NCBI RefSeq assembly: GCF_053078305.1
Contig: NZ_CP166879.1
DNA length: 64,000 nucleotides
Strand: one strand, 5' to 3'
Part shown: piece by piece, positions 1-43,075 of the stretch
Position numbering within the stretch: position 1 is the first letter of the stretch
How the letters are laid out: each line of letters begins with the position of its first letter
The notes under the pieces: model-generated
Seen by the model: the letters and a program-made list of their open reading frames with translations, nothing else
What the model was told of the DNA's origin: nothing
Database searches by the model: none
Program-made: the position numbers and the translations under genes

Positions 1-132
1 CTGCGCTCCGACACTGCGTGGGTCGGTTGCTGCCTTTGTCCCGACAGCAGCTGTACCCACCACAGCGGCAGCCACGCACCCCTGTAACAATAAGGCTGAA
101 GTAAGGACAACAGCAGAATATAATAAACGCAT
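1..132 (-). CDS. BON-domain lipoprotein, YraP/DolP-like; only the first 44 codons are in the window (gene runs off the left edge)
   Basis: Own translation of the minus strand from ATG 132-130: MRLLYSAVVLTSALLLQGCVAAAVVGTAAVGTKAATDPRSVGAQ. Lipobox LLQGC. Nearly identical to my memory of the E. coli YraP N-terminus. GGGGAGA upstream. Absent from the ORF track because it is truncated. Confidence 0.6.
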   Translation of the reverse strand, partial: MRLLYSAVVLTSALLLQGCVAAAVVGTAAVGTKAATDPRSVGAQ

Positions 133-439
133 ATCTCCCCCGGAATTGTTTTGATTTTTACTTCATATTCCCGGAATTTATCGTACAAAAAGTTTACCTT
201 CAGTGAAACAAAACAAGCTACAGACTGTTATTATCCTCCGGCACAGCCGGAAACAGCGGATGCGTTACGTGGCATATCTGTATCTGTCAGACGGAAAGAT
301 TTATATCGGATATGGATGTACTGGAATTTAATATTGATCATGTTTTTTGCACGAAAACTTTGATACCGTCGTAAAGATTCTTTTTTTAACTATCTGGTTC
401 GCTGAACAGGATCTCCTTTTCGTTATACACAGGCTGAAA

Positions 440-467
440 GGCACCGTGGAGCCCCCGGTGCCTTTTT
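440..467. terminator. GC-rich hairpin with a T-run, possibly a bidirectional terminator downstream of the ydcH-like gene
   Basis: GGCACCG (440-446) pairs with CGGTGCC (456-462). TTTTT at 463-467 on the + strand; AAAG precedes the stem. Confidence 0.45.
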
Positions 468-509
468 CATAAAACAGAGAAAACACGTCTTTGAATATAC
501 CGTTTATGA

Positions 510-737
510 TTACCGTTCGCCCTTTTCTGACTCATCTTCAAGGATTTTCTGGATTTCTCTTTTGATCTCAAGTTTTTCAAGCTTCAGCCTGACCACTTTC
601 GTCGAATACGCTGAACCAAATTCATCTTCAATTCTTTTTATTTCGTGATCAAGTTTATTATGCTTTTCAAATAAAGAATCAAAGCGTTTATGATTTCCTT
701 TCAATGCTGAAATCAGTTCTCTGTACTCCGGGAACAT
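510..737 (-). CDS. YdcH-like small coiled-coil protein (DUF465-type)
   Basis: 75-aa ORF MFPEYRELISALKGNHKRFDSLFEKHNKLDHEIKRIE... fits the remembered YdcH/DUF465 pattern. AAGGAG lies 9 nt upstream of the ATG. Confidence 0.55.
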   Translation of the reverse strand: MFPEYRELISALKGNHKRFDSLFEKHNKLDHEIKRIEDEFGSAYSTKVVRLKLEKLEIKREIQKILEDESEKGER

Positions 738-854
738 TGTTTTTATCTCCTTTCATCAACACTGTAACAATACATATAAACATTAATATTATTAAAGATT
801 CTCACCATCAATATTCGCAGTGAATAATGCAGCATCTCATATTCACATCCTGCA

Positions 855-877
855 GAGAAAACCCCTCCGGAGAGGGG
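855..877 (-). terminator. Orphan terminator-like hairpin with no supported gene upstream
   Basis: CCCCTC (862-867) CGGA GAGGGG (872-877). On the minus strand it is followed by TTTTCTC. There is no ORF of 60 aa or more to its right before 1100. Confidence 0.3.
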
Positions 878-1846
878 TGAGTGTAGCGTAATGGAGTGTT
901 ATGTAGCATGGTGCCGGGTGCCTCCCGGTGAGTTCAGTATCAGCACCTGAACCCGCACAGATAAGGGATGTGACCAAACACCTACGATACTGATATGCCC
1001 CGCCGCTCAGGGGGATTCACCATGCAGTATTTTTTTAACAAATATCCCGTAAGACCGACAATAATCCACTGACTGAACTGTGAGGTATTTAACATTTACA
1101 GATGACTGACTGTGGTGATCAGAGGTATTACAGTCATCCCCCTGTGGCTGCAGTCCGACCATACCATAACCAGCCATACGTCTTACCCGGAAAGCAAATG
1201 GAGCTTTTTGCCATAAACAACACTCTCCGGCTTCAACAAATGGAGCAGAGAATATCTTCAGAAAGTAACAATCAGTTAAAAACAGATCTTTTTTGTATTC
1301 CGTAAATTTTTCAGAAGAGAAAAAGAATTAATTGTCGCCAACGCCTTCAACAGATCGCATCATCAACGAATGATAACAACCTGAAGGATACCGCGATGGA
1401 GTTGACTGTAGACCTGCTAAAAAACCTTAACAACATCAGACAAAATGCTACTATATATGTTCACGCATACCACTATACTGATGATGAAAAATGCGTTATG
1501 GTGCCACGGATATCTTTACCATCACTGAAATTAACTCCGTTGCAATCAGAAATAATTATTCTGACATCTTCTTAATGGAGTCAATTATATAAGGCACGAC
1601 GGGTATGTTCAGGGATATGAAGAAAAAAATGTGGCAACTTTCACAATACAGGAGGAGGGACACCATCGTTTCAAAGCAGACTTATCACAAAATGGGGAAA
1701 GTGATATAGCCAGCAATGTACTAAATCACTGGCTACATCGTATACATAAAACAGATATCATTGTTCTGTCTGTTGTTCTTACAGAATAAATCCTGTTACC
1801 TCCTGAATGTTACAAGGTTTTATATTTATCCTATGAGCATACGTAC

Positions 1847-2128
1847 GTGAAAACTAATAAAAAAGGCACAACATGGCACATTTTTTACCGTGAAAATTCA
1901 GGCGCGGAAGTTTTGCTTGAAATACCATCATTTCGGGAATGTCTTTCAGTATCTAAAGAATTAATGACCCCATCAAATTACATGATATGCATAGAAAAAA
2001 ATGGCGAAAGAATAAAACGCCGGGACAGGGAAATCATCGCTGGCTCTAACAAATGGATTAACTGCCCACCTGATAACTTCGAAATATCAGGTGAGCTAAT
2101 AACCATTAACAGAATTATTAAAAAGTAA
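1847..2128 (+). CDS. hypothetical protein (93 aa)
   Basis: ORF only, in an AT-rich region. No motif recognised. Confidence 0.3.
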   Translation: MKTNKKGTTWHIFYRENSGAEVLLEIPSFRECLSVSKELMTPSNYMICIEKNGERIKRRDREIIAGSNKWINCPPDNFEISGELITINRIIKK

Positions 2129-2250
2129 CTCCGGATTCAGACAATGCATTAAGCAAGGCACTATAACAAGCAACGGGTTCATTTTTTGCGGGAGAATGCC
2201 TGTAAGATATCTCTGTGCCAGCACTACCCCTCTATTTTTATAAAACACCT

Positions 2251-2718
2251 TTAACAAACCTCGTCATTCTGATAAACAGAAGCATTCTCCTCATGATGTA
2301 ATTCACCACAGACAGCCCCTTTCCTGTTTAATTTTGCCTGATAGTGTAAATCTGGATATAACTTCACAATATATCGAAGAAACACGGAGTAAGATATATG
2401 ACTGAATAACGCCTCATGCACATTTTTCAGCAAACAACCGGAATTAACCATGAGAGCCATCTCAGAATGTTGTTTCTGCATAAATACAGCAACAGTACTG
2501 CGATTAAAAAGAGCATTTTCATGTAACTCACTTGCATCACGTCTCAGTGAAAATACAAAACCATTCTGTGAAAACGTCAGTTCCGGGTGTTTTTCCTTCA
2601 GTAATCTGTAAATATCTGGCAGTCTCATTCCATCCTTAATCCAGAGTGCAATGGCGTCACGCTCCTGGTTGATTAAGTTTTTTATCTTATTTTTTTCTGG
2701 TATAATCTTACCTTTCAT
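2251..2718 (-). CDS. hypothetical protein, divergent from mod; possible small DNA-binding protein
   Basis: Start moved to the internal ATG at 2718 (MKGKIIPEK...), which is preceded by GAGGGAGA. The segment RDAIALWIKDGMRLPDIYRLL looks HTH-like, but this is a weak judgement. Confidence 0.45.
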   Translation of the reverse strand: MKGKIIPEKNKIKNLINQERDAIALWIKDGMRLPDIYRLLKEKHPELTFSQNGFVFSLRRDASELHENALFNRSTVAVFMQKQHSEMALMVNSGCLLKNVHEALFSHISYSVFLRYIVKLYPDLHYQAKLNRKGAVCGELHHEENASVYQNDEVC

Positions 2719-2821
2719 ATTATCTCCCTCAGGAACAACAAAGAAGTTCACATATACAGAACCAGCTTTGTCTACATACCCGGAATTCAGTAAAGAAACA
2801 TAATCTATAAGACTTACTCAC

Positions 2822-2850
2822 TTTAACAAAACAACATTCCTGGATAAAAT
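2822..2850 (+). promoter_or_regulatory. Candidate sigma70 promoter for the mod leader
   Basis: TTTAAC (2822-2827), 17-nt spacer, TAAAAT (2845-2850). This would place the GCAAC tract inside the transcript. Confidence 0.3.
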
Positions 2851-2893
2851 AATATCCGATGAAATAATCTCCGCATAAATACATGAGGCTGCC

Positions 2894-3118
2894 ATGACAC
2901 GCAACGCAACGCAACGCAACGCAACGCAACGCAACGCAACGCAACGCAACGCAACGCAACGCAACGCAACGCAACGCAACGCAACGCAACGCAACGCAAC
3001 GCAACAATATGCTCGCCTGAACTCTCTCCGTCAAGTACCTCTACCTCCGTGCTTTCTGGAGGTACTGTATGAATATACGCAACAATCATCTACCGGGAAC
3101 AGAAACTCTTTTTTCTGA
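2894..3118 (+). promoter_or_regulatory. Upstream leader ORF (74 codons) that translates the GCAAC tract and overlaps the mod start
   Basis: ATG 2894 with GAGG at 2885-2888. It reads the tract as a repeating five-residue peptide (NATQR)n, crosses the mod SD and ATG in another frame, and stops at 3116-3118. Confidence 0.4.
2901..3005 (+). repeat. Simple sequence repeat: 21 perfect tandem copies of GCAAC
   Basis: Counted directly: 8 copies on line 2881, 12 on line 2941 and 1 on line 3001. No interruptions. Confidence 0.97.
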
Positions 3119-5105
3119 AACTGAAACTGCGAACAGTAAACAACTTGCTGTTTTGAAAACTAACTTTCCACAGTGTTTCGATAAAAACGGAGCTTTCATT
3201 CAGGAAAAGCTGCTTGAGATCATCAGAGCATCAAATGTTGAAATCTCTAAAGAGTCATACTGCTTAAACTGGCTTGGCAAATCCTATGCTCGCCTGCTGG
3301 CTAACCTACCACCAACGACATTGCTGTCAGAAGATAAAGACCATAACCGACGTGAAGAGAACAAGAACAGTCAAAATCTGTTAATCAAAGGGGATAACCT
3401 TGAGGTATTAAAGCATATGGTTAATGCTTATTCTGAAAAGGTTAAAATGATTTATATCGATCCGCCATATAACACGGGTTCTGATGGGTTCGCCTATAAT
3501 GATGATCGCAAATTTACACCAGAACAGCTTTCTGATCTGGCGGGTATCGATCTTGATGAGGCTAAACGTATACTTGAATTTACCACGAATGGTTCAAGCA
3601 GCCATAGCGCATGGTTAACGTTCATTTATCCTCGTTTATATATTGCTCGTGAGCTTCTACGTGAAGATGGTGTGATATTTATTTCGATTGACGAAAATGA
3701 ATTAAATCAACTTAAAACTATTTGTGATGAAATTTTTGGCGAAGCAAATTTCATAGAAAATATTGTATGGAATAAACGTATCCCTAAAAATGATAAGGGT
3801 ATTGGTAATATCCATGAGTACATCCTTGCTTATGCGAAGAATAACGAAATAAGTAAAGAATTTTTAATGCGGAAAGATGGTATTGATGATGTATATCAGT
3901 TTATTGAAAAGTTAAAAAAGGAAAAGGTGCCATTAGATAAAGCAGAGCAGCAACTCAAAAAATTCTACAGCTCCAACGGATATGATCGTGGAATTACTCT
4001 TTACAACGGTTTGAACGAGGATTATAGGCCATGGGGTAAAATTAATATGAGTTGGCCTAATGCAGATTCATTTGGACCCACGTATGAAGTATTGCACCCT
4101 TTGACTAATAACCCTGTCAAAATCCCAGACAGAGGCTGGCGTTGGAAAGAAGGCACTTTTAATCATATTGCAAAAAGAATAGATGGAAAGTATGCAGATA
4201 TCAAAAAACTACATGATGGTAGCGTTATTTGTGGTGGAATTTGGTTTGCCCGTACAGAAAAAACCCAACCCAGTTCGGTTAAATTTTTAGATGAAGTTGA
4301 AGAGTTTTTACTAAGATCAATTATTTCAACTAAAAGTGATGGTGGTGTTGAGGTTGAAAATCTTTTTGGTGGGAAAGGATATTTCTCCTACCCGAAGCCA
4401 ACAAGTTTAATAAAAACACTATTTGGTTCAGTAAGAACCGAAGATAAAGACATTTATCTTGACTTTTTTGCTGGCTCTGGAACTACAGCTCATGGTATTC
4501 TGGAGTTAAATATTGAAGACGGCAGGAAAAGAAACTTCATCTGTGTTCAATTAGATGAAGAAACAGATAAAAAGAAACAAGCCTATAAAGAAGGGTATAA
4601 ATCCATCTTCAATATAACAAAAGACAGAATTATTAAGGCAGGAAAAAAGCTGAAAAAAGATAATCCTAATTATAATGGAGATTTGGGATTTAAAATATTT
4701 GAAACAGTTCATGATTTTCGAGCGAAAGATGAGTCTGAACTTACGCTTTCTAATCTTAGTTTCTTTGACGATGCTGTATTGACACCAGAGCAGTATGACA
4801 CTCTATTGACGACATGGTGCGTGTATGATGGCAGCTTGCTAACAACACCAATTGAAGATATTGACCTTAATGGCTACAAAGCACACTTGTGCGATGGTCG
4901 GCTATATCTAATTGCGCCTAATTTCACAAGTGAGGCTTTGAAAGCTTTACTTCAAAAGCTGGATGCAGACAAAGACTTTGCCCCTAACAAAGTTGTATTT
5001 TATGGCAGCAACTTCGAAAGTGCGAAACAGATGGAACTCAATGAAGCACTAAAAAGTTATGCTAATAAAAAATCTATTGATTTAGATTTGGTGGTAAGGA
5101 ACTAA
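3069..5105 (+). CDS. mod: Type III restriction-modification methyltransferase (Mod), beta-class N6-adenine type
   Basis: 678 aa. DPPYNTG (motif IV) comes before FFAGSGTTAHG (motif I), the order seen in type III Mod. GGAGG SD at 3058-3062. The stop lies 2 nt before the res ATG. Confidence 0.9.
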   Translation: MNIRNNHLPGTETLFSETETANSKQLAVLKTNFPQCFDKNGAFIQEKLLEIIRASNVEISKESYCLNWLGKSYARLLANLPPTTLLSEDKDHNRREENKNSQNLLIKGDNLEVLKHMVNAYSEKVKMIYIDPPYNTGSDGFAYNDDRKFTPEQLSDLAGIDLDEAKRILEFTTNGSSSHSAWLTFIYPRLYIARELLREDGVIFISIDENELNQLKTICDEIFGEANFIENIVWNKRIPKNDKGIGNIHEYILAYAKNNEISKEFLMRKDGIDDVYQFIEKLKKEKVPLDKAEQQLKKFYSSNGYDRGITLYNGLNEDYRPWGKINMSWPNADSFGPTYEVLHPLTNNPVKIPDRGWRWKEGTFNHIAKRIDGKYADIKKLHDGSVICGGIWFARTEKTQPSSVKFLDEVEEFLLRSIISTKSDGGVEVENLFGGKGYFSYPKPTSLIKTLFGSVRTEDKDIYLDFFAGSGTTAHGILELNIEDGRKRNFICVQLDEETDKKKQAYKEGYKSIFNITKDRIIKAGKKLKKDNPNYNGDLGFKIFETVHDFRAKDESELTLSNLSFFDDAVLTPEQYDTLLTTWCVYDGSLLTTPIEDIDLNGYKAHLCDGRLYLIAPNFTSEALKALLQKLDADKDFAPNKVVFYGSNFESAKQMELNEALKSYANKKSIDLDLVVRN

Positions 5106-5107
5106 TC

Positions 5108-8020
5108 ATGTCTAAAGGGTTCACATTCGAAAAAAATTTACCTCATCAAAAGGCTGGCGTTGATTCGGTAATGAATGTCTTTGTATCCGCCATACCTCAT
5201 CAGACGGATCATGTTGCAATTCGCCTGTTAGCTAATCCAGAACTGAATCTATCTGAACAACAATACTACAACAACATAAAAAATGTTCAGGAGTTCAATG
5301 GTATTGAGCACTCAAAAGATAATTACGATGCTAAAAGCAACGTAATTGATGTTTCTATGGAGACAGGTACAGGTAAAACTTATACTTACACCAAAACAAT
5401 TTTTGACCTGAACAAATCATTTGGTATTAACAAATTTATCATCATTGTTCCTACCCTATCGATCAAAGCCGGAACCGTTAACTTTTTAAAAAGCGATGCT
5501 ATAAAAGAACACTTTCGAGATGATTACGAGCGTGAACTAAAGACTTACGTTGTTGAAAGTCAGAAAAGTTCGGGTAAAAATACAAAATCGTATATGCCTC
5601 AAGCTATCCATGATTTTGTTGAAGCAAGTAATTTCAATAAGAAATATATACACATTCTTGTGATCAACTCAGGGATGATTAACTCTAAGTCTTTAACTGA
5701 CACTTATGATGTTGGCTTGCTTGATAATCAGTTTGATACCCCATTTTCTGCACTTAGTGCGATAAAACCATTCATTATCATTGATGAGCCTCATAAATTT
5801 CCTACTGGTAAAAAGACATGGGAACATATTCAAAAATTTAATGCCCAATATATCATCCGCTATGGCGCAACCTTTAGTGAAGGCTATAAGAACTTAGTTT
5901 ATCGTCTTACAGCCGTAGATGCCTTCAATGAAGATCTTGTTAAAGGTATTGATGCATACATTGAGGATATAGTTGGTGATGGTAATGCCAACCTCAAGTT
6001 GGTCAAATCTGACGGAAAAGAAGCTACATTTGAACTGAACGAAAATAATAATAAAAAAATTTTTAAGTTAGCCAAAGGTGAATCACTATCTAAGACGCAT
6101 AGTGCGATCCATGATTTAACTCTTGATGCTTTAAATAAGAATACAGCAGTGTTGAGTAATGGTATTGAGCTAAAAATTGGTAGTTCGATAAACCCCTATT
6201 CTTACGATCAGACACTTGCTGATAACATGATGCGTAAAGCTGTCAAAGAACACTTTAAGTTAGAAAAAGAGTATCTGACACAAAGGCCACGCATAAAACC
6301 TCTTACTCTTTTCTTCATTGATGACATTGAAGGCTATCGTGATGGTAATGATATTGCAGGAAGCCTGAAAACTAAGTTCGAAGAATACGTTTTGGCAGAA
6401 GCAAATGAACTGTTAAAAACAGAGAAAGATGAGTTTTACAGAAACTACCTTGAAAAAACTGTTAAGGATATATCTTCTGTTCATGGTGGTTATTTTTCAA
6501 AAGATAATAGTGATAAAGATGATAAAATTGAGCAGGAAATCAACGAAATCCTTCATGATAAAGAGCTTCTATTGTCTTTAGAAAATCCTCGCCGTTTCAT
6601 TTTCTCTAAATGGACGTTGCGTGAGGGATGGGATAACCCAAATGTCTTTCAGATTTGTAAGCTCCGTTCGAGCGGTAGCACCACATCTAAACTTCAGGAG
6701 GTAGGGCGTGGTTTACGTCTTCCAGTGAATGAATACATGTGCCGTGTGAAAAACCGCGATTTTACTCTCAACTATTATGTTGATTTTACGGAAAAAGATT
6801 TTGTTGATTCTCTTGTAAAAGAGGTTAATGATAGTTCTTTCAAAGAAACTGTTCCAGGTAAGTTTACTCAAGAACTTAAGGATAAAATCTTATCTCAGTA
6901 TCCTGAGCTTTCATCCAGAACACTCATGAATGAGATCTTTGATGCTGAAATTATTGATGATAATGAAAACTTCAAAGATTCCGATGCCTATAGCCGTTTA
7001 AAAGCAAAATATCCGGCTGCATTCCCTACCGGGGTGAAACCAACAAAAATAAAAAAAGCCACGGATGGAAAAAAGCGTACTAAAATGCGTATTGGTAAGT
7101 TCAGTGAGTTGAAAGAACTATGGGATTTGATCAATCAAAAAGTAGTAATTGAGTATAAAATAAATAGTGAAAATGAATTCTTATCCATTTTCAAATCATT
7201 CATGATTGAAGAAACAGATAGATTTACTAAATCAGGTGTTCATACTCGCATTGATAGAATTTATATTCATAATGATACGGCGATGTCGAAAAGTATCGTC
7301 AGTGACGATGATAACTTTGCTAAACTAAACACAATGAGCTATCGGGAATTTCTTGATAACTTATCACAAACTATTTTTGCTAAACACGATACCTTACATA
7401 AGGTTTTTTGTGATATAAAAGACACTATCAATATCACCGACTACCTGAACATTCAGACAATCAGAAAGATTAAATCTGGGTTTAGCAAGTATTTGTTGAA
7501 CAATTCATTTAACAAATTCAGCCTTGGATATAATGTAATTTCAGGCTCAATTCATCCTACAAAATTCACTAATGCAGACGGTAATCACCTGCATGAGGTA
7601 TTATCAGGTGATCTTGGAGTATTACAGGATAATACAAAAGCCCCCCTAGACTCTTATCTTTTTGAAGAAGTTTTTTATGATTCAGAGCTTGAAAGACTCA
7701 ATATAACAGACGGAGAGATCCACTCTGTTGCTGTTTTTACAAAGATACCGAAAAACTCAATTAAAATTCCAGTGGCAGGTGGATACACATATTCTCCTGA
7801 CTTTGCTTATGTTGTAAAAACAACAAAGGGTGACTACCTTAACTTTATTATTGAAACAAAAAATGTCGAAGGTAAAGAAAGTTTACGTAAAGAAGAACTG
7901 GATAAAATAAAGCATGCACAAAAACTTTTCGAACAGGTAAGTAAATCTGTAAAAGTAACTTTTATAACTCAATTCTCAGGTGACAGAATCCATGATCTGA
8001 TAAAAAATGTGATTCAGTAA
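5108..8020 (+). CDS. res: Type III restriction enzyme, Res subunit (SF2 helicase plus PD-(D/E)xK nuclease)
   Basis: 970 aa. Contains GTGKT, IIIDEPHKF (DEPH box) and QEVGRGLRLP (motif VI). The C-terminal SPDFAY...IIETK is nuclease-like. Confidence 0.9.
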   Translation: MSKGFTFEKNLPHQKAGVDSVMNVFVSAIPHQTDHVAIRLLANPELNLSEQQYYNNIKNVQEFNGIEHSKDNYDAKSNVIDVSMETGTGKTYTYTKTIFDLNKSFGINKFIIIVPTLSIKAGTVNFLKSDAIKEHFRDDYERELKTYVVESQKSSGKNTKSYMPQAIHDFVEASNFNKKYIHILVINSGMINSKSLTDTYDVGLLDNQFDTPFSALSAIKPFIIIDEPHKFPTGKKTWEHIQKFNAQYIIRYGATFSEGYKNLVYRLTAVDAFNEDLVKGIDAYIEDIVGDGNANLKLVKSDGKEATFELNENNNKKIFKLAKGESLSKTHSAIHDLTLDALNKNTAVLSNGIELKIGSSINPYSYDQTLADNMMRKAVKEHFKLEKEYLTQRPRIKPLTLFFIDDIEGYRDGNDIAGSLKTKFEEYVLAEANELLKTEKDEFYRNYLEKTVKDISSVHGGYFSKDNSDKDDKIEQEINEILHDKELLLSLENPRRFIFSKWTLREGWDNPNVFQICKLRSSGSTTSKLQEVGRGLRLPVNEYMCRVKNRDFTLNYYVDFTEKDFVDSLVKEVNDSSFKETVPGKFTQELKDKILSQYPELSSRTLMNEIFDAEIIDDNENFKDSDAYSRLKAKYPAAFPTGVKPTKIKKATDGKKRTKMRIGKFSELKELWDLINQKVVIEYKINSENEFLSIFKSFMIEETDRFTKSGVHTRIDRIYIHNDTAMSKSIVSDDDNFAKLNTMSYREFLDNLSQTIFAKHDTLHKVFCDIKDTINITDYLNIQTIRKIKSGFSKYLLNNSFNKFSLGYNVISGSIHPTKFTNADGNHLHEVLSGDLGVLQDNTKAPLDSYLFEEVFYDSELERLNITDGEIHSVAVFTKIPKNSIKIPVAGGYTYSPDFAYVVKTTKGDYLNFIIETKNVEGKESLRKEELDKIKHAQKLFEQVSKSVKVTFITQFSGDRIHDLIKNVIQ

Positions 8021-8103
8021 ACACATGCATGATAACAAAGTGGAGGTGGTTTCACCCCCACTTTATAATTATACACACATCACAAAATTCGCAGGTGAGT
8101 TCA

Positions 8104-8802
8104 ATGACAACATGTTCTGAACTGAAGGAAAGAGCCCGTTTTGATGGTATGCATGATGCTTCTCTTGAAGTGGCATGGCAATTACTTATGACGAAAAGTG
8201 TATCCACTATTACTACTGAGATAATATCCGGTGCAGACATGTCCAATTTTTCAGTGATTATCAGGGAACGATATAAACATGCAATAGCAAAATCTCTTCT
8301 CAATCATTTATCTCCCGATGTTGTTTCTGACATCATCGGTTTATCTCATGATGAGTTCAATCAACAATATAAAGGCAATTTAACCAGACAACAACACCTG
8401 AGAGATATTGCTGTAAGTTTAACAGATAAAGGATTCACAGAATCATCTGCATGTAATATTGTCAACCTGGACCTAATGTTACTTCCTGAAGAAAACTGGT
8501 TACTTTATAAAGAAAATTACAATACAGGATATCAGGATGCACTTTATAAATCCGTATGGAGAATGCACACATACGAATATCCAACAGCAACCATCAGTTG
8601 TTTGACAAAATTAAATAATGAAAATATATTAAATATTATTACAGGTATAGAAGTAATACTCCTCGCAGCAAAAAAACCTGCATGTAAAGACAGAACAGAT
8701 AAAATTGCTGAAATGCTGAAAATACCATTCTCTGTCGTCAAAGAATTTATTGATGAACAGGCTTTATTGAACAAATCAAACATTCAGGGAACTGGCAGTT
8801 GA
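8104..8802 (+). CDS. hypothetical protein (232 aa) immediately downstream of res
   Basis: Start set at the ATG at 8104 (MTTCSELKER...), which follows AGGTGAG. Two HTH-like segments are present, but no family was recognised. Confidence 0.45.
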   Translation: MTTCSELKERARFDGMHDASLEVAWQLLMTKSVSTITTEIISGADMSNFSVIIRERYKHAIAKSLLNHLSPDVVSDIIGLSHDEFNQQYKGNLTRQQHLRDIAVSLTDKGFTESSACNIVNLDLMLLPEENWLLYKENYNTGYQDALYKSVWRMHTYEYPTATISCLTKLNNENILNIITGIEVILLAAKKPACKDRTDKIAEMLKIPFSVVKEFIDEQALLNKSNIQGTGS

Positions 8803-8828
8803 ACAAAACGCCAGTCCGAAGACTGGCG
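8803..8828 (-). terminator. Rho-independent terminator for the 8849-9535 gene (hairpin shared with the + strand unit)
   Basis: CGCCAGTC (8809-8816) CGAA GACTGGCG (8821-8828). On the minus strand it is followed by TTTTGT. Confidence 0.6.
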
Positions 8829-8848
8829 CAGTGATAAAACATTCTGCA

Positions 8849-9535
8849 TCATGCCACATTCTGCTCCTGAAGATGACGCAGACGATGGTCCCAGTTTCCC
8901 AGGTAATGCCCGGGCGTCAGCAGTACGCGGCGTCGCTCATTACAGAGCGAGTTACCAATCACCACTTCTCCGGCCACACCACACAACGACAGTTGTATAT
9001 ACGCCATGCCGGCTGCCAGCGGGTCAATATCCGTTGCCGACACCCACATCCTGCGATATGCCGGATACCCCGAACGGTTCAGGGTGTCAGCCATTGCCAG
9101 AATCATACTGCCGGCACCACAGGCAGGTTCACTGAGCGTGATAAAGGGTTTGTTCTCAAACAACGCCTTCACATCTCCCATCTGCATCTGTGCCATCATG
9201 CTGGCAACACTCCAGGGCGTGAAAAACTGACTCCGGTATTTATCCCCCAGTTCCAGTTGCATGAACACACTCCCCAGAAAATCACAGACTCCCTGCTCCA
9301 GTCCCTCAATGACATGAGCAAGCAAATGCGCAATGTGGATAACATCCTGCTTTTCATAACCACTGACGATCCGCAGATACTTCTGTTCCCGGGCCTCACT
9401 GAACTGAAGCCGGTTTTCCAAGGCAATCACACTACAGCTGACAAAGTCTTCAAACACCTTATGACGTTTGTGATAACAGGCTGTCCGGTTAAACAACGAA
9501 ATGAACTCCTTCTGATGGTCAGTCATGGTGGCCAT
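8849..9535 (-). CDS. N6-DNA-methyltransferase-like protein that ends before the catalytic motif IV
   Basis: 228 aa. Contains FFTP, EPACGAGS (motif I) and TDIDP (motif II). The ORF ends after VIGNSL with no (N/D)PP(F/Y/W) motif. GGAG SD. Confidence 0.6.
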   Translation of the reverse strand: MATMTDHQKEFISLFNRTACYHKRHKVFEDFVSCSVIALENRLQFSEAREQKYLRIVSGYEKQDVIHIAHLLAHVIEGLEQGVCDFLGSVFMQLELGDKYRSQFFTPWSVASMMAQMQMGDVKALFENKPFITLSEPACGAGSMILAMADTLNRSGYPAYRRMWVSATDIDPLAAGMAYIQLSLCGVAGEVVIGNSLCNERRRVLLTPGHYLGNWDHRLRHLQEQNVA

Positions 9536-9545
9536 GTTTTCTCCG

Positions 9546-9591
9546 TAAAAACAGGGAACACATGGCCCGGACAGGGGAACAGGTGTTCCCC
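9546..9591 (-). terminator. Terminator with two alternative stems downstream of the 9647-10594 gene
   Basis: GGGAACAC (9554-9561) pairs with GTGTTCCC (9583-9590); alternatively GGGGAACA (9574-9581) pairs with TGTTCCCC (9584-9591). TGTTTTTA follows on the minus strand. Confidence 0.55.
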
Positions 9592-9646
9592 TTCGGGTTG
9601 AAATGTTGATAAAACGGGCATCACGGACATGATACCCGGAGGTTAA

Positions 9647-10594
9647 TTACTGGGCTGAGACCAGAGGAACCGGTAAAGGTGCGGCTTTCGTCTGTTCTTC
9701 AGCGCACTCCTCCACCAGGTACAGTCGGGGCTGTGGAAGTGTTTCCCTGCCCGGCCATTCGGCCTGCAGATCACTGTCCGTATGCTCTCCGCCATCGTAA
9801 CAGTTGTAACCCTGTATACCGTGTACCGGCTCGCTGTACCAGTGTCGGACCTCGCAGTCAAACACCTTCGAGATCTCACCAACCAGTTCGCCTGAAGGCG
9901 GATACCAGGGCGTGTCGATCAGCAGCACCAGACTGCTCATCTCATCACGCGCATGGCGAACATTATTTCCTGACGGCCACTCCACACCGTATATCCGGCT
10001 GTAAAGGCTGGTCGTTGTGGAAATACCCTGCAGCAGTCCACCTGAACCATTCAGCTCTGTAGCCAGACGGGAGGGTATGACCATCAGCATGTCACAGGGC
10101 TGCGCCTGTTCCGGGTAATCCGACAACCAGCTCCAGCAGGCTTCTGCATCAATGTGTTCACTCAGCCCGGCCAGACCAAACCAGTCAGAATACTGACGGC
10201 TCATCAGCGTGGTGATGATCTCCCTGGCATTATCCGGCAGATTACCCCAGCGAACAGCGCCGATACATGACTGGTGATAAAGACGCTCAATGGTCTTTAT
10301 CGTTTCACCATCCAGAACGGCATTTTTTACCAGCAACCCCAGCCACTGCTCAAACGCCTGGTTAGCCGGAGATGACAACCCCGTTCCGTGACGAACCAGC
10401 GCCGGATATGGCGGATACTGCGTCGTCCGTGTGGGTTTTACCAGCCCTGCACAACCGGCCAGAAACAGCTGTATACTCTGCTGTATGGCATGACGGTAGC
10501 GCGGGGTCTCACGCCCTTCAATCCACTGTGTAAGTACATCAAGACAGACTGATTTACCGGTAATTTCAAAACGGTTTTTGCACCATTCAGACAT
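9647..10594 (-). CDS. hypothetical protein (315 aa), conjugative-element type; possibly DUF1281-like
   Basis: AGGAG SD. The N-terminus MSEWCKNRFEITGKS resembles my memory of DUF1281/Api92-like proteins (low certainty). Confidence 0.55.
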   Translation of the reverse strand: MSEWCKNRFEITGKSVCLDVLTQWIEGRETPRYRHAIQQSIQLFLAGCAGLVKPTRTTQYPPYPALVRHGTGLSSPANQAFEQWLGLLVKNAVLDGETIKTIERLYHQSCIGAVRWGNLPDNAREIITTLMSRQYSDWFGLAGLSEHIDAEACWSWLSDYPEQAQPCDMLMVIPSRLATELNGSGGLLQGISTTTSLYSRIYGVEWPSGNNVRHARDEMSSLVLLIDTPWYPPSGELVGEISKVFDCEVRHWYSEPVHGIQGYNCYDGGEHTDSDLQAEWPGRETLPQPRLYLVEECAEEQTKAAPLPVPLVSAQ

Positions 10595-10623
10595 TGTTTA
10601 CGCTCCTCTTTTTTATACAGATG

Positions 10624-10661
10624 TAAAAAGAGGGCATTGTCCCGTGAGGTACAATGCCCTC
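10624..10661 (-). terminator. Rho-independent terminator after the 10678-10992 gene
   Basis: GAGGGCATTGT (10630-10640) pairs with ACAATGCCCTC (10651-10661). TTTTT follows on the minus strand. Confidence 0.6.
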
Positions 10662-10666
10662 ACGGG
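10641..10666. repeat. GC-rich dyad, family 1 (CCCGTGAGG ... CCTCACGGG)
   Basis: 9-bp perfect inverted repeat that overlaps the terminator stem, so the two pairings are mutually exclusive. Lies ~47 nt upstream of start 10594. Confidence 0.8.
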
Positions 10667-10677
10667 AAAACGGGGTA

Positions 10678-10992
10678 TCACGCCCCGTTGTTGCGGATAA
10701 AACCCTGCAGCCAGGCAGTTCGCTCAGGGCCATACCGCCTGTTGACATTCATCAGTTCGTCTGCAGACGGATTGATGAAAAGGTTGTAGTACCAGAGCTC
10801 TTCCTTTAAATCCGCCAGGTTCCCCCTGCCGGTCCTGAGCCACTCCTGTACAACATCCCTGATTTCAGATGTGACATCTCCACGGTAATTTGACGTGATC
10901 GTAACATCTGCCAGTAATTCACTGATATTTCCTGCTATCAGACACGGTTCAGAGATCCCGTTACAGAACCAGACAAGGCATTTACCAGCCAT
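10678..10992 (-). CDS. hypothetical protein (104 aa)
   Basis: GGAGG SD 6 nt upstream. Packed 3 nt from the upstream gene. Confidence 0.55.
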   Translation of the reverse strand: MAGKCLVWFCNGISEPCLIAGNISELLADVTITSNYRGDVTSEIRDVVQEWLRTGRGNLADLKEELWYYNLFINPSADELMNVNRRYGPERTAWLQGFIRNNGA

Positions 10993-10995
10993 ACC

Positions 10996-11433
10996 TTACC
11001 TCCTGTATTTGCTGGTATTTATCCCGATCTCGTTTATGGCTACGGATATGTTGCCCGGAAAACGCGCTGTTTCAATCTTCTCCAGCTCGTTTTTCCGGTA
11101 ACGCTCCACGGTCACACTCAACGGGACGTTCCCCTGTCCGTACTCTTTACGAAGGCGATCAATACACTCCTGTACCAGTTCATCGCTGAAATAACGGGAT
11201 TCAAGCACAGACAGCAGCCCGTCTTTATTCTCAAACCCCTCTGTGACAGAGCGTACTTCGGCCTCCGTTGGACCATCCAGCCAGCTCACCCACACATTGT
11301 TGAAAACTTTCGGGAAAGATGGATCGCATTTCCGCACAGAAAATTTCTGTCCCGGAAATGTATACGCCAGCACATCCCTGATACGGGCCACAACAGCATC
11401 GTCAACATCAACCAGTGCGTTATCGTTCATCAC
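10996..11433 (-). CDS. hypothetical protein (145 aa)
   Basis: AGGAA SD. The composition looks coding. No motif recognised. Confidence 0.55.
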   Translation of the reverse strand: MMNDNALVDVDDAVVARIRDVLAYTFPGQKFSVRKCDPSFPKVFNNVWVSWLDGPTEAEVRSVTEGFENKDGLLSVLESRYFSDELVQECIDRLRKEYGQGNVPLSVTVERYRKNELEKIETARFPGNISVAINEIGINTSKYRR

Positions 11434-11472
11434 TCAGTTCCTCTGTAATCCTGAAATAACAGAGAGCACTGC

Positions 11473-11498
11473 CCCGTGAGGGACAATGCCCTCACGGG
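11473..11498. repeat. GC-rich dyad, family 1 (CCCGTGAGGG-N6-CCCTCACGGG)
   Basis: 10-bp perfect inverted repeat with the same loop ACAATG as the 10641 copy. Lies ~40 nt upstream of start 11433. Confidence 0.8.
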
Positions 11499-11539
11499 AT
11501 AAATGGCGGTCAGGTTATAACCGCCACCGGTAGTAAAAA

Positions 11540-12517
11540 TTATGCTGCGCACTCCTGCGAAGTTCGCCGCGTCAGTAAATACTCTGATGCTTCACGTGCC
11601 TGCCGGCAGGCGCGAAACAGCGCTTTTTTGTCAGACTTCAGAACCTTAAGCCATCCGTCAATATAACTTTCGTGCTGTACGTCACCGGCAATCCCGAGAT
11701 GTGCACACAGAAAAGCACTGCCCATCTCGGCAATCAGCTCTTCAAACGCATATTCCGGGCTTTTGCGACCGGTAAAGGTACTTATCCCCACCCGCCGCAG
11801 GCGCTTTTCATGACCGGTACTGTGTACCAGCTCATGCAGCAGGGTGGCCTGGTAATCAGCCACCTGGTCAAACTGCGACGACAGTGGCATCACGATACGG
11901 TCAAGATCAGGCCGGTAGAATGCCCTGTCCTGTGGAAGTGACGAGACGCTGACGCCGCTGCCATTCAGTACCTGCAGCACCCGCTCACTGAAGGTATCTG
12001 CCGGCAGTGCATCCGCGCTGCCTTCCGCCTTCACCATCAGATGTTCAGGTAAACCGTCACACTGCCCCACATTAAACAGAGGATTCGATTTCAGTACCGG
12101 TACGATTTCCATGAGAGGCTCCCCCTCACTGTCCGTCAGCCGGTTACCGTGTTCATCCACAGCCTGTTTTTTCCAGTCTTTGTAAATCACCGCCAGCGTG
12201 GCCACCTCCCCTTTACGGACGTGGCCACCCAGTTGTTGCGCCTGACGGTACGTCAGCCAGTCATTGCTGACATACCCGGCTTCATCCGCGGCCAGCCACA
12301 GCAACAGGACGTTCACCCCTGTATAAGGCTTCCCGGTCAGGGCATTTGCCGGCATCATCTCCGGAAGCCCCACGCCATTACGCGCAGAGCGCCAGGGACG
12401 TTTCCAGGGTGGCACACCATTTTCAATGGCCGTAACAACCCTGTCGGTCACAAGCTGATACAGGTCACGTTCCGGAGTTTTAATCGCGGTACGTGAAGTA
12501 TGTTTTTTCGTTTTCAT
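11540..12517 (-). CDS. ardC: ArdC-type antirestriction protein (ssDNA-binding N-domain plus zincin metalloprotease domain)
   Basis: VVTAIENGVPPWKRPW (ArdC-N pattern) and LLHELVHSTGH (HEXXH). Start moved to ATG 12517 (MKTKKHTSR...), giving 325 aa. Confidence 0.8.
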   Translation of the reverse strand: MKTKKHTSRTAIKTPERDLYQLVTDRVVTAIENGVPPWKRPWRSARNGVGLPEMMPANALTGKPYTGVNVLLLWLAADEAGYVSNDWLTYRQAQQLGGHVRKGEVATLAVIYKDWKKQAVDEHGNRLTDSEGEPLMEIVPVLKSNPLFNVGQCDGLPEHLMVKAEGSADALPADTFSERVLQVLNGSGVSVSSLPQDRAFYRPDLDRIVMPLSSQFDQVADYQATLLHELVHSTGHEKRLRRVGISTFTGRKSPEYAFEELIAEMGSAFLCAHLGIAGDVQHESYIDGWLKVLKSDKKALFRACRQAREASEYLLTRRTSQECAA

Positions 12518-15442: not shown

Positions 15443-15777
15443 GAAAAAGCCCGTTAATAAAGGGCGCAGTTATAAAGAAACCTTCATCGTCATGACTGAC
15501 GATATCTGCTCTCAAAGGTGGGCAGATTTACCACCACCAGAAACATCCTGGCTGCACATCCCCTTTCAGGTTACGGGGGTGTTGATCACCCGAAGGCGTT
15601 CCTCTCAGATCAACGGAACATTGGTGCCCACCGAAGCGGGATGTGGTCACCCGAAGGCGCTCCTCTCAGACCACTTATGGAGCATTGGTGGTCGCCGAAG
15701 CGACATGTAGCCACCCGAAGGCGCTCCTCTCAGGCCACTTGTGGAGCATTGGTGGTCGCCGGAGCGACATATAAGCC
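15443..15777 (-). ncRNA. STAXI-like structured element, locus A: three tandem ~64-nt pseudoknot modules plus a ~135-nt 3' part
   Basis: On the minus strand there are six UNCG tetraloop hairpins, two covarying stems per module, G.U pairs that exist only in the minus-strand reading, and a terminal GCCC/GGGC hairpin followed by U5. See findings. Confidence 0.55.
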
Positions 15778-29612: not shown

Positions 29613-30134
29613 TCAGAAGTGACCGTCCAGGCGGTCACCGAACTCGATAATAAAGCGGCTCATTGCCATTCGCCGGTTTTGCCATTCTACAACCTGCTCC
29701 ATCACGGCATCGGTGACCTTTGATATCAGTGCCGGTGAAACATCTGCGTCATACAGCTCTTTGAACGCAGCAGCGATCTCACGGGTGGTCATCCCTTTGG
29801 CATACAACGAGAAGATCTGGTTATCCATCCCAGTAATACGGGTCTGATTTTTCTTTACCAGTTGTGGTTCGAAGGTACCGTCACGATCGCGCGGAGTACG
29901 CAGTTCCAGTGGACCGTCGCCTGTGATAACGGTCTTTGTGGAATAACCGTTGCGGGAGTTAGTTCCCGGTTTGGACTGATTTTTCTCATACCCAAGATGG
30001 TGTGTCATCTCTGCATTGAGAGCGGCTTCAACGCTGATCTTTTTCAGTAGACGGTCAAACTGGCTGAGGTCTTCAGGGGTTTTGAGGTTTTTGGCCAGTT
30101 CGTTAGCCAGAGCCTGTAACTGTTTTTCGTCCAT
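29613..30134 (-). pseudogene. IS256-family (mutator-type) transposase, N-terminal fragment only
   Basis: MDEKQLQALANELAKNLKTPEDLSQFDRLLKK...GMTTREI... is the conserved N-terminal part. Similarity ends after VEWQNR and there is no DDE domain. Confidence 0.8.
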
Positions 30135-30149
30135 AAATTAACCTTCATT

Positions 30150-31560
30150 TGATGCTTGATTGAACATATCAAAATCAGGCAATTACACAAATCTATGTAC
30201 AGGCTCTTTCCAAGGCCTCTCCTTTACCACTCTCGGGAAGCCCCTTTCCCTTCTTGTCGGTAATTTCACAAGTTGTCCCATACTTGCAAGATCGCGCATC
30301 AGCCCCGGTATACGTCCCGGTGAAGCGCCCTGCAATGTCATCACCATTCCGCATGATTCTGAGAAACTCAGTTGATTCGGCCAGTAACCTTTCAGATGTT
30401 CCGCCATTTTAATCATCTGACATCTTACCAGATTATAAGCCAGTAAGACACCCCACAGCTCTTGCTCCACAAGCTCCGGCTTTTTACAGCGTCAGCCTGC
30501 TCAGTTGCATCGTCTGTTTTATCTCCCTGTATCCCAGTTCAATTTCCCGGCGATGACTGTACAGATCCGCCATTTCTCCCCCGGGGAAGCGCATGGCGTC
30601 CGTCATCGACGTCAGCAGATGGCAGACTTCTCCTTTGCGCGTCACGGTCAGCAGGCGGGCTGTCACCTCATTTCCCAGTCCCGGCCACTTTTTTCGTGCC
30701 TGCGGGCTGGTTTTCAGCTTCACCAGATGATCGCCTTTACCCAGTTTTCTGATCTCTTCATATTGCGCTCCCTTTCTGAGAGGGATCATCCAGTGGCGGT
30801 GTTCTCCCACCAGGCTCCAGGCATTTAACAGTCCCAGTGAGTAATAACCTTTATCCATTAACGTCAGGGTGTTATCGCCGGTTTGTTCTATAAGTTGCTC
30901 AGCAAGCTCATTTTCGCTGTTCTTCATCGTGCCGAAGGCTCAGCCGTAAGCAGATGGCTGGTCAGTTCCATCTGGCAGACTATTTTGACCTGCGGGTAGA
31001 GCGCCGGGTTGCCGGCATGTATCTGGCGGGGGAAGGCTGCATCGTTCTCTGGTGTATCCGGTGTGCGCCAGAACATACCATCGATGGCCAGCAGGGTCAG
31101 GCCGCATCAGTGCGGATGCGGCGTGGCGTTATGCCAGAGCTGCGCTGTTTTCGTGAACACGCGGCGGACAGCCTCACTTCCCAGGTGCTGGCGGGCCTGA
31201 ATAACGGCACTGGGGGCAACGAAGGGGCGATTGCCGGCAGCATGATGTCCAGGCGATTCACAATCTGGTGAAGGGGCTCTTTACGCTCAAGCGCCATGCC
31301 AACAATACACCAGACCATCATTTCGAGGGGAAGACGGCGCTTGCGTAGCGTTACCGTACCTGATTCGGCAAGGCAACGAGAGATGAGTTCGGGGTCGAGG
31401 TAATCCCCCAGAGAAGCCAGTGGGTTACGCAGAGAATCGTAACGGGATACCAGATCAAGGGCCTGTCCAGTGTGCATAAAAAATCCGGAAACGAGTGAGC
31501 GTTTCCGGATTCTTACACAACCACTGGATCGGTCAACTGATCCTTAACCGATCGGCATTA
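30150..31560 (-). mobile_element. IS4 copy with an inactivated transposase. Right terminus is at 31560; the left terminus is approximate.
   Basis: The terminal sequence ...CCGATCGGCATTA ends at 31560, which I remember as an IS4 end. The size is consistent with ~1.43 kb. Confidence 0.7.
30183..31477 (-). pseudogene. IS4 transposase (InsG-like) broken by frameshifts
   Basis: Three collinear ORF pieces (31477-31097, 30927-30484, 30470-30183) match the remembered InsG sequence (MHTGQALDLVSRYDSLRNPL..., ...MKNSENELAEQLIEQTGDNTLTLMDKGYY..., ...EQELWGVLLAYNLVR...). The middle third is readable only in another frame. Confidence 0.85.
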
Positions 31561-31590
31561 CGGCATTGCCGGGGTCAGACTAAGCATCTT

Positions 31591-32166
31591 TTAGACGTTG
31601 ACGCCGTGCTGGGAAGCAAGCGCTGACAGGCCACCGGAAAAACCCTGACCGACAGCTTTAAACTTCCACTCAGCGCCATGGCGATACAGTTCACCGAAGA
31701 CCATTGCGGTTTCAGTTGAGGCGTCTTCAGACAGATCGAAACGGGCAATTTCCGCGCCGTTATCGTTGTTGTAAACGCGCATGAAGCTGTTGCTCACCAT
31801 GCCGAAATTTTGTTTACGCGCTTCTGCATCATAGATGGTAACGGCAAATACCAGTTTTTTGACGTCAACTGAGACTTTTGCCAGATCGATTTTAATTTGC
31901 TCATCGTCACCATCGCCTTCACCGGTACGGTTGTCACCCTGGTGCTCTACTGCGCCATCAGGGCTGGTTTTATTATTGAAGAAAATGAAATGGGCATCTG
32001 ACAGCACTTTACCGTCTTCACCTACTGCGAATACGGAAGCGTCCAGATCAAAAGCCTGACCGTCAGTTACACGGGCATCCCAGCCAAGACCAACCATAGC
32101 AACATTCATGGTCGGTGCTTCTTTGGTCAGAGATATGTTGCCGCCTTTTACGAGAGAAACTGCCAT
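31591..32166 (-). CDS. terE: Tellurium resistance protein TerE (TerD-domain, 191 aa)
   Basis: [18 protein letters not shown]...[13 protein letters not shown]... Start set at ATG 32166 after AGGAG. Confidence 0.92.
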
Positions 32167-32233
32167 TTTTAACTCCTGCAAACAGTTGAATGAGGGCTGA
32201 ATCAACAGCCCGGAATGAAAAGTTAGTTTTCGA

Positions 32234-32812
32234 TCAAGACGCGTTAATGCCGTACTGAGCACATACAGATGCCAGCCCCCCCGCATAACCCTGACCTACA
32301 GCACGGAATTTCCACTCACCATTGTGACGATACAGTTCACCGAACAGCATGGCGGTTTCAGTGGACGCATCTTCAGTCAGATCGTAGCGAGCAACTTCAG
32401 TCTGGTTATCGTCATTAACCAGGCGAATAAACGCCCCGGAAACCTGACCAAAGTTCTGACGGCGAGCCTGAGCATCATGGATCGTCACAACGAAGATGAT
32501 CCTGTCGATGTCAGACGGGACAGTATCAAGTTTAATTTTCAGCGATTCATCATCACCATCCCCCTCACCAGTACGGTTATCGCCGGTGTGCGTTACAGAA
32601 CCGTCGGATGACGTCAGGTTGTTATAGAAGATGAAATCTGAATCGCCACGCACTTTGCCGTTTGCGGTCAGCAGGAATGCTGAAGCATCCAAGTCAAAGT
32701 CCTGACCGTCAGTTGAACGTGCATCCCAGCCAAGACCCACCAGGACGTTTTTCATTGACGGAGCTGCTTTACTCAGGGAGACGTTCCCGCCTTTGGAAAG
32801 AGAAACACTCAT
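32234..32812 (-). CDS. terD: Tellurium resistance protein TerD (192 aa)
   Basis: [32 protein letters not shown]...[13 protein letters not shown]. Start set at ATG 32812. Confidence 0.92.
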
Positions 32813-32860
32813 AAAATAACCTCTTCGATTAGTAATTGCTCCGGTTAACACTTAAGGGGA

Positions 32861-33901: not shown

Positions 33902-33919
33902 ATTTTACCCTTAGGGATG

Positions 33920-34375: not shown

Positions 34376-34397
34376 ACCAGTTTCCTTTATTGCTGTG

Positions 34398-36136: not shown

Positions 36137-36455
36137 GTTTTATTCCTTAAAATGCTGATAACTGAGACAATCAAAAGTATATTTAGTAACTGGCGAAGAA
36201 AATCATATCATGATGAAGTTCTCTGACAAGGGAAATTTGGTAGCTTTCTGTAAAAACACAAAGAGAAATCCTTTTCATGATGTCCTTTCATCTAAATACC
36301 AATTAAATATCAACACATTAACAGGTAACACAAAAACACTGATACACTCCATAACCTCAGGTGTTATTAATCATATTATGATTGACATGTAGCATATACA
36401 CCCATAAACTCACTTCTCGACAATAAATTTTCTTGCCGTTCCGGATAATAAAAAA

Positions 36456-37514: not shown

Positions 37515-37523
37515 GGCGTGTTT

Positions 37524-39432: not shown

Positions 39433-39433
39433 A

Positions 39434-41469: not shown

Positions 41470-41479
41470 GGAAATCATA

Positions 41480-43060: not shown

Positions 43061-43075
43061 TGACAAATCTCAGCT

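Follow-up and report, generated by a model that had tools for sequence, protein, structure and literature searches.

Type III DNA methyltransferase (mod) genes that show phase variation, among them modA of Haemophilus influenzae and Neisseria as well as modB, modD, modM, modH, modP, modQ and modS, carry a 5' repeat whose copy number varies between strains through slipped-strand mispairing (PMC5909438, PMC10123105). In the published phasevarion model the repeat is part of the mod open reading frame (ORF), so that a tract length out of frame cuts Mod short (PMC10123105). Haemophilus, Neisseria and Helicobacter provide well-known cases of phase variation driven by repeats; such cases are rare in Escherichia coli. 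We analysed a 64,000-nucleotide (nt) stretch of contig NZ_CP166879.1 (assembly GCF_053078305.1), called the window below, in which 21 uninterrupted GCAAC units precede the mod gene of an E. coli restriction-modification (R-M) operon of type III. This locus shares with the phasevarion mods a 5' repeat and a frame that changes with a period of three. Unlike them, it has a mod frame that is shut past the tract, a mod start that lies downstream and an intact endonuclease gene, res; the repeat is not inside the mod ORF, and no repeat length brings it into frame with Mod. We propose, from the sequence and from predictions made on it, that the tract is probably a phase switch which acts on mod by translational coupling through a short leader ORF containing the repeats. 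A phase-variable type III mod is an already known kind of system, and the leader-ORF repeat is a new variation on that kind.

The E. coli system closest in kind is M.Eco131I, a CAGCGAC[n] mod of Shiga-toxigenic E. coli that was termed the single and first E. coli example in a survey in which the GCAAC system is not mentioned (PMC5909438, Atack et al. 2018). M.Eco131I is likewise an E. coli type III mod with a long 5' repeat of strain-variable length and a Shine-Dalgarno (SD)-preceded ATG right before the tract. Compared by its published description, it differs from the GCAAC locus in its 7-nt unit and in that its tract is reported within the annotated ORF. In Pasteurellaceae, a type III system of Pasteurella haemolytica, PhaBI, was reportedly described by Ryan and Lo in 1999. 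CACAG repeats of P. haemolytica are listed as repeats of mod, and CACAG-mod systems of this family have been called phase-variable since 1999 (PMC5149525, PMC3874151). The survey by Atack et al. also includes a GCACA[n] mod group (PMC5909438). Our literature search returned no account of GCAAC with a phase-variable methylase and none of repeats in a coupling leader ORF; the search did not cover the original 1999 PhaBI paper, and an earlier leader-ORF description is possible.

Coupling through an upstream ORF has several precedents. In tap-repA (IncFII plasmid R1), repY-repZ (IncI/IncB), mok-hok and the MS2 coat-replicase pair, the upstream ORF has to be translated before a structure masking the SD or start of the second gene opens; the leader ends on that second start or beside it, and control is exerted by antisense RNA or protein. 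The GCAAC locus is unlike these in that the frame, and with it ribosome arrival, would be set by a hypermutable DNA repeat within the leader. In H. influenzae, the transferase gene lex2B is preceded by a small ORF, lex2A, and expression of lic1 is graded, from alternative starts in different frames. Both systems belong to another gene class than the GCAAC locus. The lex2A repeat is a GCAA tract whose ON and OFF states are scored by repeat number (PMC6479036). In H. influenzae hmw1A, ATCTTTC repeats are transcribed in the 5' untranslated region (5'-UTR) and act post-transcriptionally, with a length-graded effect through a long repeat hairpin cut by RNase III (PMC12721329). hmw1A resembles the GCAAC locus in carrying its repeat in the transcribed 5' leader of the gene under control; it differs in having no translated leader and no frame dependence, and the GCAAC tract is predicted to be unstructured.

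The GCAAC tract lies in a leader ORF upstream of mod

The mod gene (3069..5105, + strand) encodes an EcoP15I-like type III N6-adenine DNA methyltransferase of 678 amino acids. Mod matched Pfam N6_N4_Mtase PF01555 (E 1.5e-35) and T3RM_EcoP15I_C PF18273 (E 1.1e-34), PADLOC MTase_III (E 1e-233) and the EcoP15I Mod structure 4zcf (E 7.7e-240, Mod residues 12-678 aligned), in agreement with an earlier reading of the bare sequence (the sequence-only reading) that had named it a type III mod. The res gene (5108..8020, + strand) encodes a type III restriction endonuclease of 970 amino acids; its ATG lies 2 nt past the mod stop and is preceded by AAGGA, and Res matched Pfam ResIII and RE_endonuc and the NCBIfam type III endonuclease equivalog NF012027 (1073 bits against a cutoff of 564). 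Positions 30000-44000 of the window are 99.9% identical to an E. coli chromosome, and the Mod sequence is on public record as E. coli. Judged by their sequence, mod and res form an intact type III operon of the EcoP15I-like kind within a genomic island of E. coli.

The features of the leader region, apart from the hairpin and SD at the mod start, are as follows.

2823..2850, + strand: sigma-70-like promoter candidate, TTAACA-16 nt-TAAAAT, scoring 10/12 in a consensus scan; it would start a leader-mod-res mRNA near 2857
2885..2888, + strand: leader SD, GAGG, 5 nt before the ATG at 2894
2894..3118, + strand: leader ORF, 74 amino acids as sequenced, reading M-T-(RNATQ)n and then a tail set by the frame
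2901..3005, + strand: (GCAAC)21 simple sequence repeat, the hypermutable element (Tandem Repeats Finder (TRF): period 5, 21.4 copies, 100% matches; a regular-expression search agrees)
3018..3020, + strand: leader stop TGA in the mod frame, which it shuts; used at n mod 3 = 1 (n, the number of units) and lying 16 nt 5' of the base of a predicted hairpin
3069..3072, + strand: ATGA, the mod start overlapping the leader stop TGA at 3070; used at n mod 3 = 2
3116..3118, + strand: leader stop TGA inside mod, 47 nt past the mod ATG; used at n mod 3 = 0

The tract is the sole GCAAC tract of this sort in the window, of which both strands were scanned, and lies 64 nt upstream of the mod ATG. A perfect pentanucleotide array of 105 nt is not a product of chance, and its length also varies between otherwise identical genomes. 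Frame outcomes were obtained by rebuilding the region in silico with 15 to 27 GCAAC units. As the sequence-only reading had worked out, the leader stopped at 3116 with 21 units, at TGA 3070 within ATGA with 20 or 23 and at 3018 with 19 or 22; its positions for the tract, the leader SD and ATG, and the SD (GGAGG, 3058-3062) and ATG (3069) of mod were also correct. With n = 21, the window itself is in the n mod 3 = 0 state and its leader stops at TGA 3116. These results establish the anatomy of the locus and its frame arithmetic: the leader has its own SD and start codon, and its stop overlaps the mod start in one of the three frames.

The TGA at 3018 lies in the mod frame, and therefore no repeat number reads the tract into Mod. 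The sequence-only reading had dismissed an on/off frameshift within the mod ORF on the strength of this codon, and the dismissal holds more widely: the classical mechanism is excluded by a mod-frame stop five codons past the tract both in the window (TGA) and in a second E. coli lineage (TAA), hereafter lineage 2, in which mod and res share about 93% identity with those of the window. An N-terminal leader-Mod fusion was likewise rejected, as an in-frame stop shuts the mod frame in every design that we compared.

With the promoter candidate placed 5' of the leader, the mRNA would include the tract and have the leader as its first ORF. An inverted repeat, GGATAAAATAATATCC, lies within 2842-2879 and overlaps the -10 element of this candidate, and it is followed by 15-nt direct repeats (TRF 2843-2879, 2.4 copies). 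At the aligned position lineage 2 has a different palindrome, CAGGTTAGAATAAAAACCTG, which was scored as a minus-strand terminator-like hairpin. These palindromes could be an operator or an antisense terminator. The Prokaryotic Genome Annotation Pipeline (PGAP) calls the lineage-2 counterpart of the leader ORF a hypothetical protein in three of eight annotations (CM2, GF43 and 2013C-3033). An Rfam scan of 2600-3300 of the window matched no family.

Repeat number varies among E. coli genomes

Searching E. coli genomes by megablast with 2600-3400 gave no match, presumably through low-complexity masking and the short flanks; homologues were recovered with a 12-kb query and with a lineage-2 query. 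Short-read contigs carrying Mod variants break off within the tract and gave no copy counts. Genomes encoding the exact Mod of the window had 21, 15 and 14 units. In lineage 2, seven complete genomes with flanks 99.9-100% identical over 1101 nt had 13, 25, 25, 29, 30, 33 and 47 units, and four more distant genomes had 19, 34, 37 and 37. Across these 14 E. coli tracts the length differences were always multiples of 5 nt, and an interrupted unit occurred in one tract only (GAAAC, in locus L094; L numbers are our labels for the loci compared). The sequence-only reading had set a comparison of repeat numbers in homologous loci as a test of the switch. Repeat number was not invariant: it ran from 13 to 47, and all three frames were found, with n mod 3 = 0 in four tracts, 1 in seven and 2 in three. 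The tract is thus hypermutable in length between E. coli strains.

Some carriers of the same upstream arrangement have broken genes. In TUM1886 (L085) res is frameshifted; in FDAARGOS_1300 (L095) mod is frameshifted, and there PGAP annotates a small ORF upstream of mod. In STEC2018-553 an IS1 element lies inside the matched region. The system is therefore sometimes permanently inactivated.

The layout is retained in a second E. coli lineage

Alignment of the window with lineage 2 gave about 41% identity 5' of the tract and 69% 3' of it. The 16-nt block right after the tract is almost wholly different, and there is a 6-nt indel. Within these diverged flanks lineage 2 retains a leader SD (GAGGCT) 7 nt before the leader ATG, which itself lies four nt 5' of the tract. 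The fifth codon past the tract is again a stop in the mod frame, TAA where the window has TGA, inside the rewritten 16-nt block. Lineage 2 also retains an open frame ending exactly at ATGA, a frame with a +47 stop in mod, and the hairpin at the mod start. A promoter-like site, TTCAGA-17-TAGAAT, occupies the position aligned with TTAACA-16-TAAAAT of the window. The three-outcome logic thus outlasts sequence turnover between the E. coli lineages.

The same design recurs in Pasteurellaceae

Among 80 species-representative mod loci none had GCAAC, two (L024 and L080) had ordinary in-ORF repeats, and a repeat upstream of mod was found in one only, that of Bisgaardia hudsonensis, which has (ACAAGCCT)n. 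Loci of Pasteurella multocida and P. atlantica were then found by starting from the Bisgaardia Mod, which is 43% identical to the window Mod, the closest of the Pasteurellaceae group compared directly. P. multocida loci, all encoding an identical Mod, carry (CACAG)n with n = 10, 15, 20, 21, 21, 24, 24, 28, 33 and at least 133; of the nine tracts resolved in full, the ATGA frame is found in six. The P. atlantica loci carry (CACAG)25.

In all three species a leader ATG lies just ahead of the tract, a stop right after the tract shuts the mod frame, and one open frame ends in a TGA overlapping the mod ATG as ATGA. The Bisgaardia mod-frame stop is a TAA made from the last repeat base plus AA. Gene callers list small ORFs ending 4 nt into mod in public assemblies. 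The P. multocida and P. atlantica CACAG loci thus resemble the window in leader ATG, pentanucleotide tract, mod-frame stop, ATGA frame, predicted start hairpin and variable n. They differ from it in that the Mods are only distantly related; the repeat units and spacers of the Pasteurellaceae designs are unrelated to each other and to those of E. coli. A second difference concerns the frames: two of the three Pasteurellaceae frames end early, which leaves the ATGA frame alone to cross the start site, whereas E. coli has a second crossing frame (+47). From these sequences the wiring appears to be shared between the E. coli and Pasteurellaceae systems. The sequence-only reading had taken the arrangement, seen in an enterobacterial island, to be undescribed; the literature searched gave no matching account. 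The arrangement is not confined to this island, as CACAG systems of Pasteurellaceae have the same build.

Two of these loci have unusual tracts. In P. multocida L233 (1-665) the run of at least 133 CACAG units continues past the end of the fetched stretch, and in P. atlantica L237 the 25-unit tract occurs twice (289-413 and 515-639), about 100 nt apart. Either may be real or an assembly artefact.

Relatives without the repeat are arranged differently. Plasmid homologues share mod-res only from about codon 11, have no repeat and have a 94-amino-acid ORF upstream of mod. This conserved ORF of about 94 amino acids (...SRQPYEAR.FKS.DGA..EL.R.G...) ends about 11 nt before mod in repeat-free relatives from Enterobacterales to Vibrio and Pseudoalteromonas. 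It was found at 2691-2975 of L001, at 1120-1482 of L097 and upstream of mod in L003, L008, L009, L011, L012, L016, L022 and L023, and searches of Pfam, NCBIfam and PADLOC assigned it to no family. Possibly it is a partner or regulator, so far uncharacterised, of the type III family in question.

A predicted hairpin covers the mod start

Two further features lie at the start site.

3034..3066, + strand: predicted hairpin of 9-10 base pairs (bp) sequestering the mod SD; 5' arm AGUACCUCUA at 3034-3043, 3' arm UGGAGGUACU at 3057-3066
3058..3062, + strand: mod SD, GGAGG, within the 3' arm of the hairpin and with 6-nt spacing to the ATG at 3069

The hairpin has a predicted energy of -12.7 kcal/mol (z -2.6), and a second anti-SD copy, TACCTCC, lies at 3042-3048. 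The homologous hairpin of lineage 2 has 9 bp and a predicted energy of -14.9 kcal/mol (z -2.4). Start-site hairpins were also predicted for P. multocida (z -3.8), P. atlantica (z -6.9) and Bisgaardia (z -2.7). As a negative control we used the close, repeat-free Mod relatives in LF82 and on the Salmonella plasmid p-F219b, which were unstructured at the mod start (z +0.9 and +0.4); these two have the conserved 94-amino-acid ORF, ending 11 nt before mod. Start-site structure is thus consistently predicted, by thermodynamics only, in the repeat-bearing systems and is absent from the repeat-free relatives. The sequence-only reading had called the mod SD strong; it is so in its GGAGG consensus and 6-nt spacing, but it is not freely available, being predicted to be paired with a probability of at least 0.98.

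The early leader stop lies 16-17 nt 5' of the hairpin base in both E. coli lineages. Given the size of the ribosome footprint, a ribosome terminating there should sit too far off to open the hairpin.

We then folded the whole predicted leader with n from 0 to 40. The probability that the mod SD is unpaired was at most 0.02 throughout. Since its predicted pairing is constant over n, length alone should not change accessibility, and frame should. Refolding of the SD by repeat length, considered as a candidate mechanism, was rejected at the level of prediction, as pairing was unchanged for n = 0 to 40. This result bears on a broader alternative, in which the transcribed tract alters mRNA level, stability, processing or Rho access according to repeat number and the leader ORF is irrelevant. 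Such control has a precedent in hmw1A, whose transcribed 5'-UTR repeat acts through RNA structure and RNase III (PMC12721329). The GCAAC tract is rich in C, poor in G and has no predicted structure, which would give it a Rho-loading-like composition, and the copy number spans a wide range, 13 to 47. An effect of length, however, is not what the flat predicted SD accessibility suggests, and it leaves unexplained why four unrelated spacer designs share a leader SD and ATG right beside the tract, a shut mod frame, a frame ending exactly at ATGA and an occluded start. We consider control by length unlikely.

Proposed mechanism

The sequence-only reading had put forward a coupling-based, three-state switch. 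The checks made at the level of sequence agree with coupling, and the predicted hairpin and the recurrence in Pasteurellaceae add support; we infer, in the scheme that follows, the coupling itself, the three states, translation of the leader, the limit that the hairpin sets on initiation, polarity on res and how strongly each state is expressed.

Coupling through the leader would work as follows. The mod ribosome-binding site would be locked by the upstream anti-SD hairpin and would initiate poorly unaided. Slipped-strand gain or loss of one 5-nt unit would move the leader ribosomes to another frame. At n mod 3 = 1 they would stop at TGA 3018, the hairpin would stay shut and Mod would be off or basal. 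At n mod 3 = 2 they would melt the hairpin and end on ATGA, and termination-reinitiation would turn Mod on. At n mod 3 = 0, the state of the window, they would run past the hairpin and the mod start as far as the +47 stop, with an uncertain, perhaps intermediate result, as the start site would be unmasked and at the same time blocked by ribosome traffic. Res would be expected to follow the state of Mod, because res is coupled 2 nt downstream. The Pasteurellaceae version would have one ON frame (ATGA) and two OFF frames.

There is perhaps an even chance that these loci stand for an unrecognised general class of contingency switch, in which a repeat sits in a translated leader whose frame decides whether ribosomes reach ATGA and unmask a hairpin-occluded start. 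Such a class would have originated repeatedly among R-M operons of type III (GCAAC in E. coli, CACAG in Pasteurella, ACAAGCCT in Bisgaardia), may underlie systems described with repeats 'in mod', and in E. coli would have a third, intermediate state. What sets it apart from the phasevarions is its wiring: a leader-ORF repeat appears to control translation initiation of mod, and of res by polarity, in a mobile defence island. If the proposal is true, surveys confined to annotated mod ORFs miss such switches, and the search strategy for phase-variable methylases changes. Avian-pathogenic and Shiga-toxigenic E. coli lineages would then have on, off and possibly intermediate states of restriction and methylation, with effects on phage resistance, DNA uptake and perhaps gene expression, and the locus would be a compact model of stochastic control through translational coupling.

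Weighing the coupling model against other explanations

The tract might instead be a neutral relic of a once N-terminally extended, in-frame phase-variable mod that was uncoupled by a nonsense mutation, after which mod would be translated constitutively through an SD and ATG of its own. The early stop in the mod frame fits such a history, as the leader would fuse to Mod without it, and so do the consensus SD of mod at 6-nt spacing and the frameshifted mod or res of some carriers, which suggests decay. A relic would not be expected to keep long, near-pure tracts in two E. coli lineages and three Pasteurellaceae, nor a leader SD and ATG conserved within diverged flanks. The mod-frame stop is present in five of five designs, with codons and contexts that differ, and predicted sequestration of the SD is confined to the systems that bear repeats. 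A neutral relic is therefore doubtful, and we rank it after control by length.

Antisense or convergent transcription is a third possibility. A candidate minus-strand promoter just downstream of the tract, TTGACG-17-CATATT (3034 to 3006), would fire into the repeats from a start near 2998, and the antisense RNA, which could run across the tract and the leader start, or a collision with the sense promoter would act according to tract length. The E. coli lineages have the same two hexamers around 17 nt that are almost wholly different, the scan called the site in both, and lineage 2 has the minus-strand terminator-like hairpin just past the leader start. The site nevertheless reaches only 9/12 to consensus, and the same conserved blocks serve the sense strand as tract border and hairpin base. 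The scan of the window found no minus-strand terminator-like site, and Rfam has no such RNA family. On balance this reading is improbable. That the repetitive leader peptide, M-T-(RNATQ)n, is itself functional has in its favour a good SD and the PGAP calls in three of eight lineage-2 annotations, and it is very improbable, as the peptide varies 3.5-fold in length between near-identical strains, its C-terminal tail shifts with the frame and the Pasteurellaceae leaders encode unrelated repeat peptides.

Several points weigh against coupling through the leader. The promoter, the hairpin and translation of the leader are all predicted. Covariation support for the hairpin is thin: changes within E. 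coli are one-sided only (U-A to U-G; G-U to G-C in L095), without a double compensatory change. The conserved minus-strand promoter-like site pointing into the tract could add another type of control. The putative OFF frame is the commonest, in seven of 14 E. coli tracts, yet this neither backs nor contradicts the assignment of states. Finally, the leader may decay. In L088 (1320-1440), which encodes an identical Mod, the leader SD is mutated to GAGTCT and the first ATG meets TAA after four codons; five degenerate units (GCTAC TAAAA GCAAC GCAAT GAAAC) make a new ATGAAAC start and are followed by 14 perfect units. Either the leader of this variant is in decay or the variant is an artefact of short-read assembly.

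Genomic context and other observations

The operon neighbours in the island include DUF1281, ArdC and PilI-type genes. E. coli OkiPb01677 (L225), compared with 1-12000 of the window, has the same PilI/DUF1281/ArdC flanks, and there a KwaB-like protein and an N6-methylase replace the type III operon. From these sequences the island site looks like a hotspot for swapping defence genes. A search of a phage collection gave no match to the locus. Downstream of res the window has two ORFs, 8029-8802 and 8831-9601, encoding 257 and 256 amino acids, the first beginning 9 nt after res. Neither matched Pfam, NCBIfam or PADLOC. Both are missing from the lineage-2 loci, where DUF1281 is directly 3' of res.

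The first 11 or so mod codons (3069-3101) differ by lineage, reading MNIRNNHLPGT in the window and MNTQPQFQLKK in lineage 2, with only MDMQK in the repeat-free Mods; these lineage-specific codons lie outside the EcoP15I alignment, which starts at residue 12. Together with the promoter, leader, repeat and hairpin, they look like a cassette-like unit, which, judged from the alignments, appears to have replaced the 94-amino-acid upstream ORF of the repeat-free relatives. Inside mod, (GAAACT)2 lies at 3117-3128 of the window; the variant P0128 has three copies, which add an extra Glu-Thr to the Mod N-terminus.

Scans of metagenome and viral sequences for (GCAAC)6 gave 123 loci, none of which encodes a relative of Mod or Res; GCAAC tracts found elsewhere therefore have no link to the present system. 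Termite-gut metagenome Ga0209755 contigs (L102, L108, L109, L138 and L142) carry (GCAAC)15-22 followed by the motif GCAAATATTATAC...CTAGC...CGCATTTTTT. Some Ga0209755 contigs have more than one GCAAC tract, none near mod or res. These loci may be a contingency-locus family of another organism. TRF also reported two more tandem arrays in the window, at 15587-15770 (64-nt unit, 2.9 copies) and 60903-61185 (87-nt unit, 3.3 copies).

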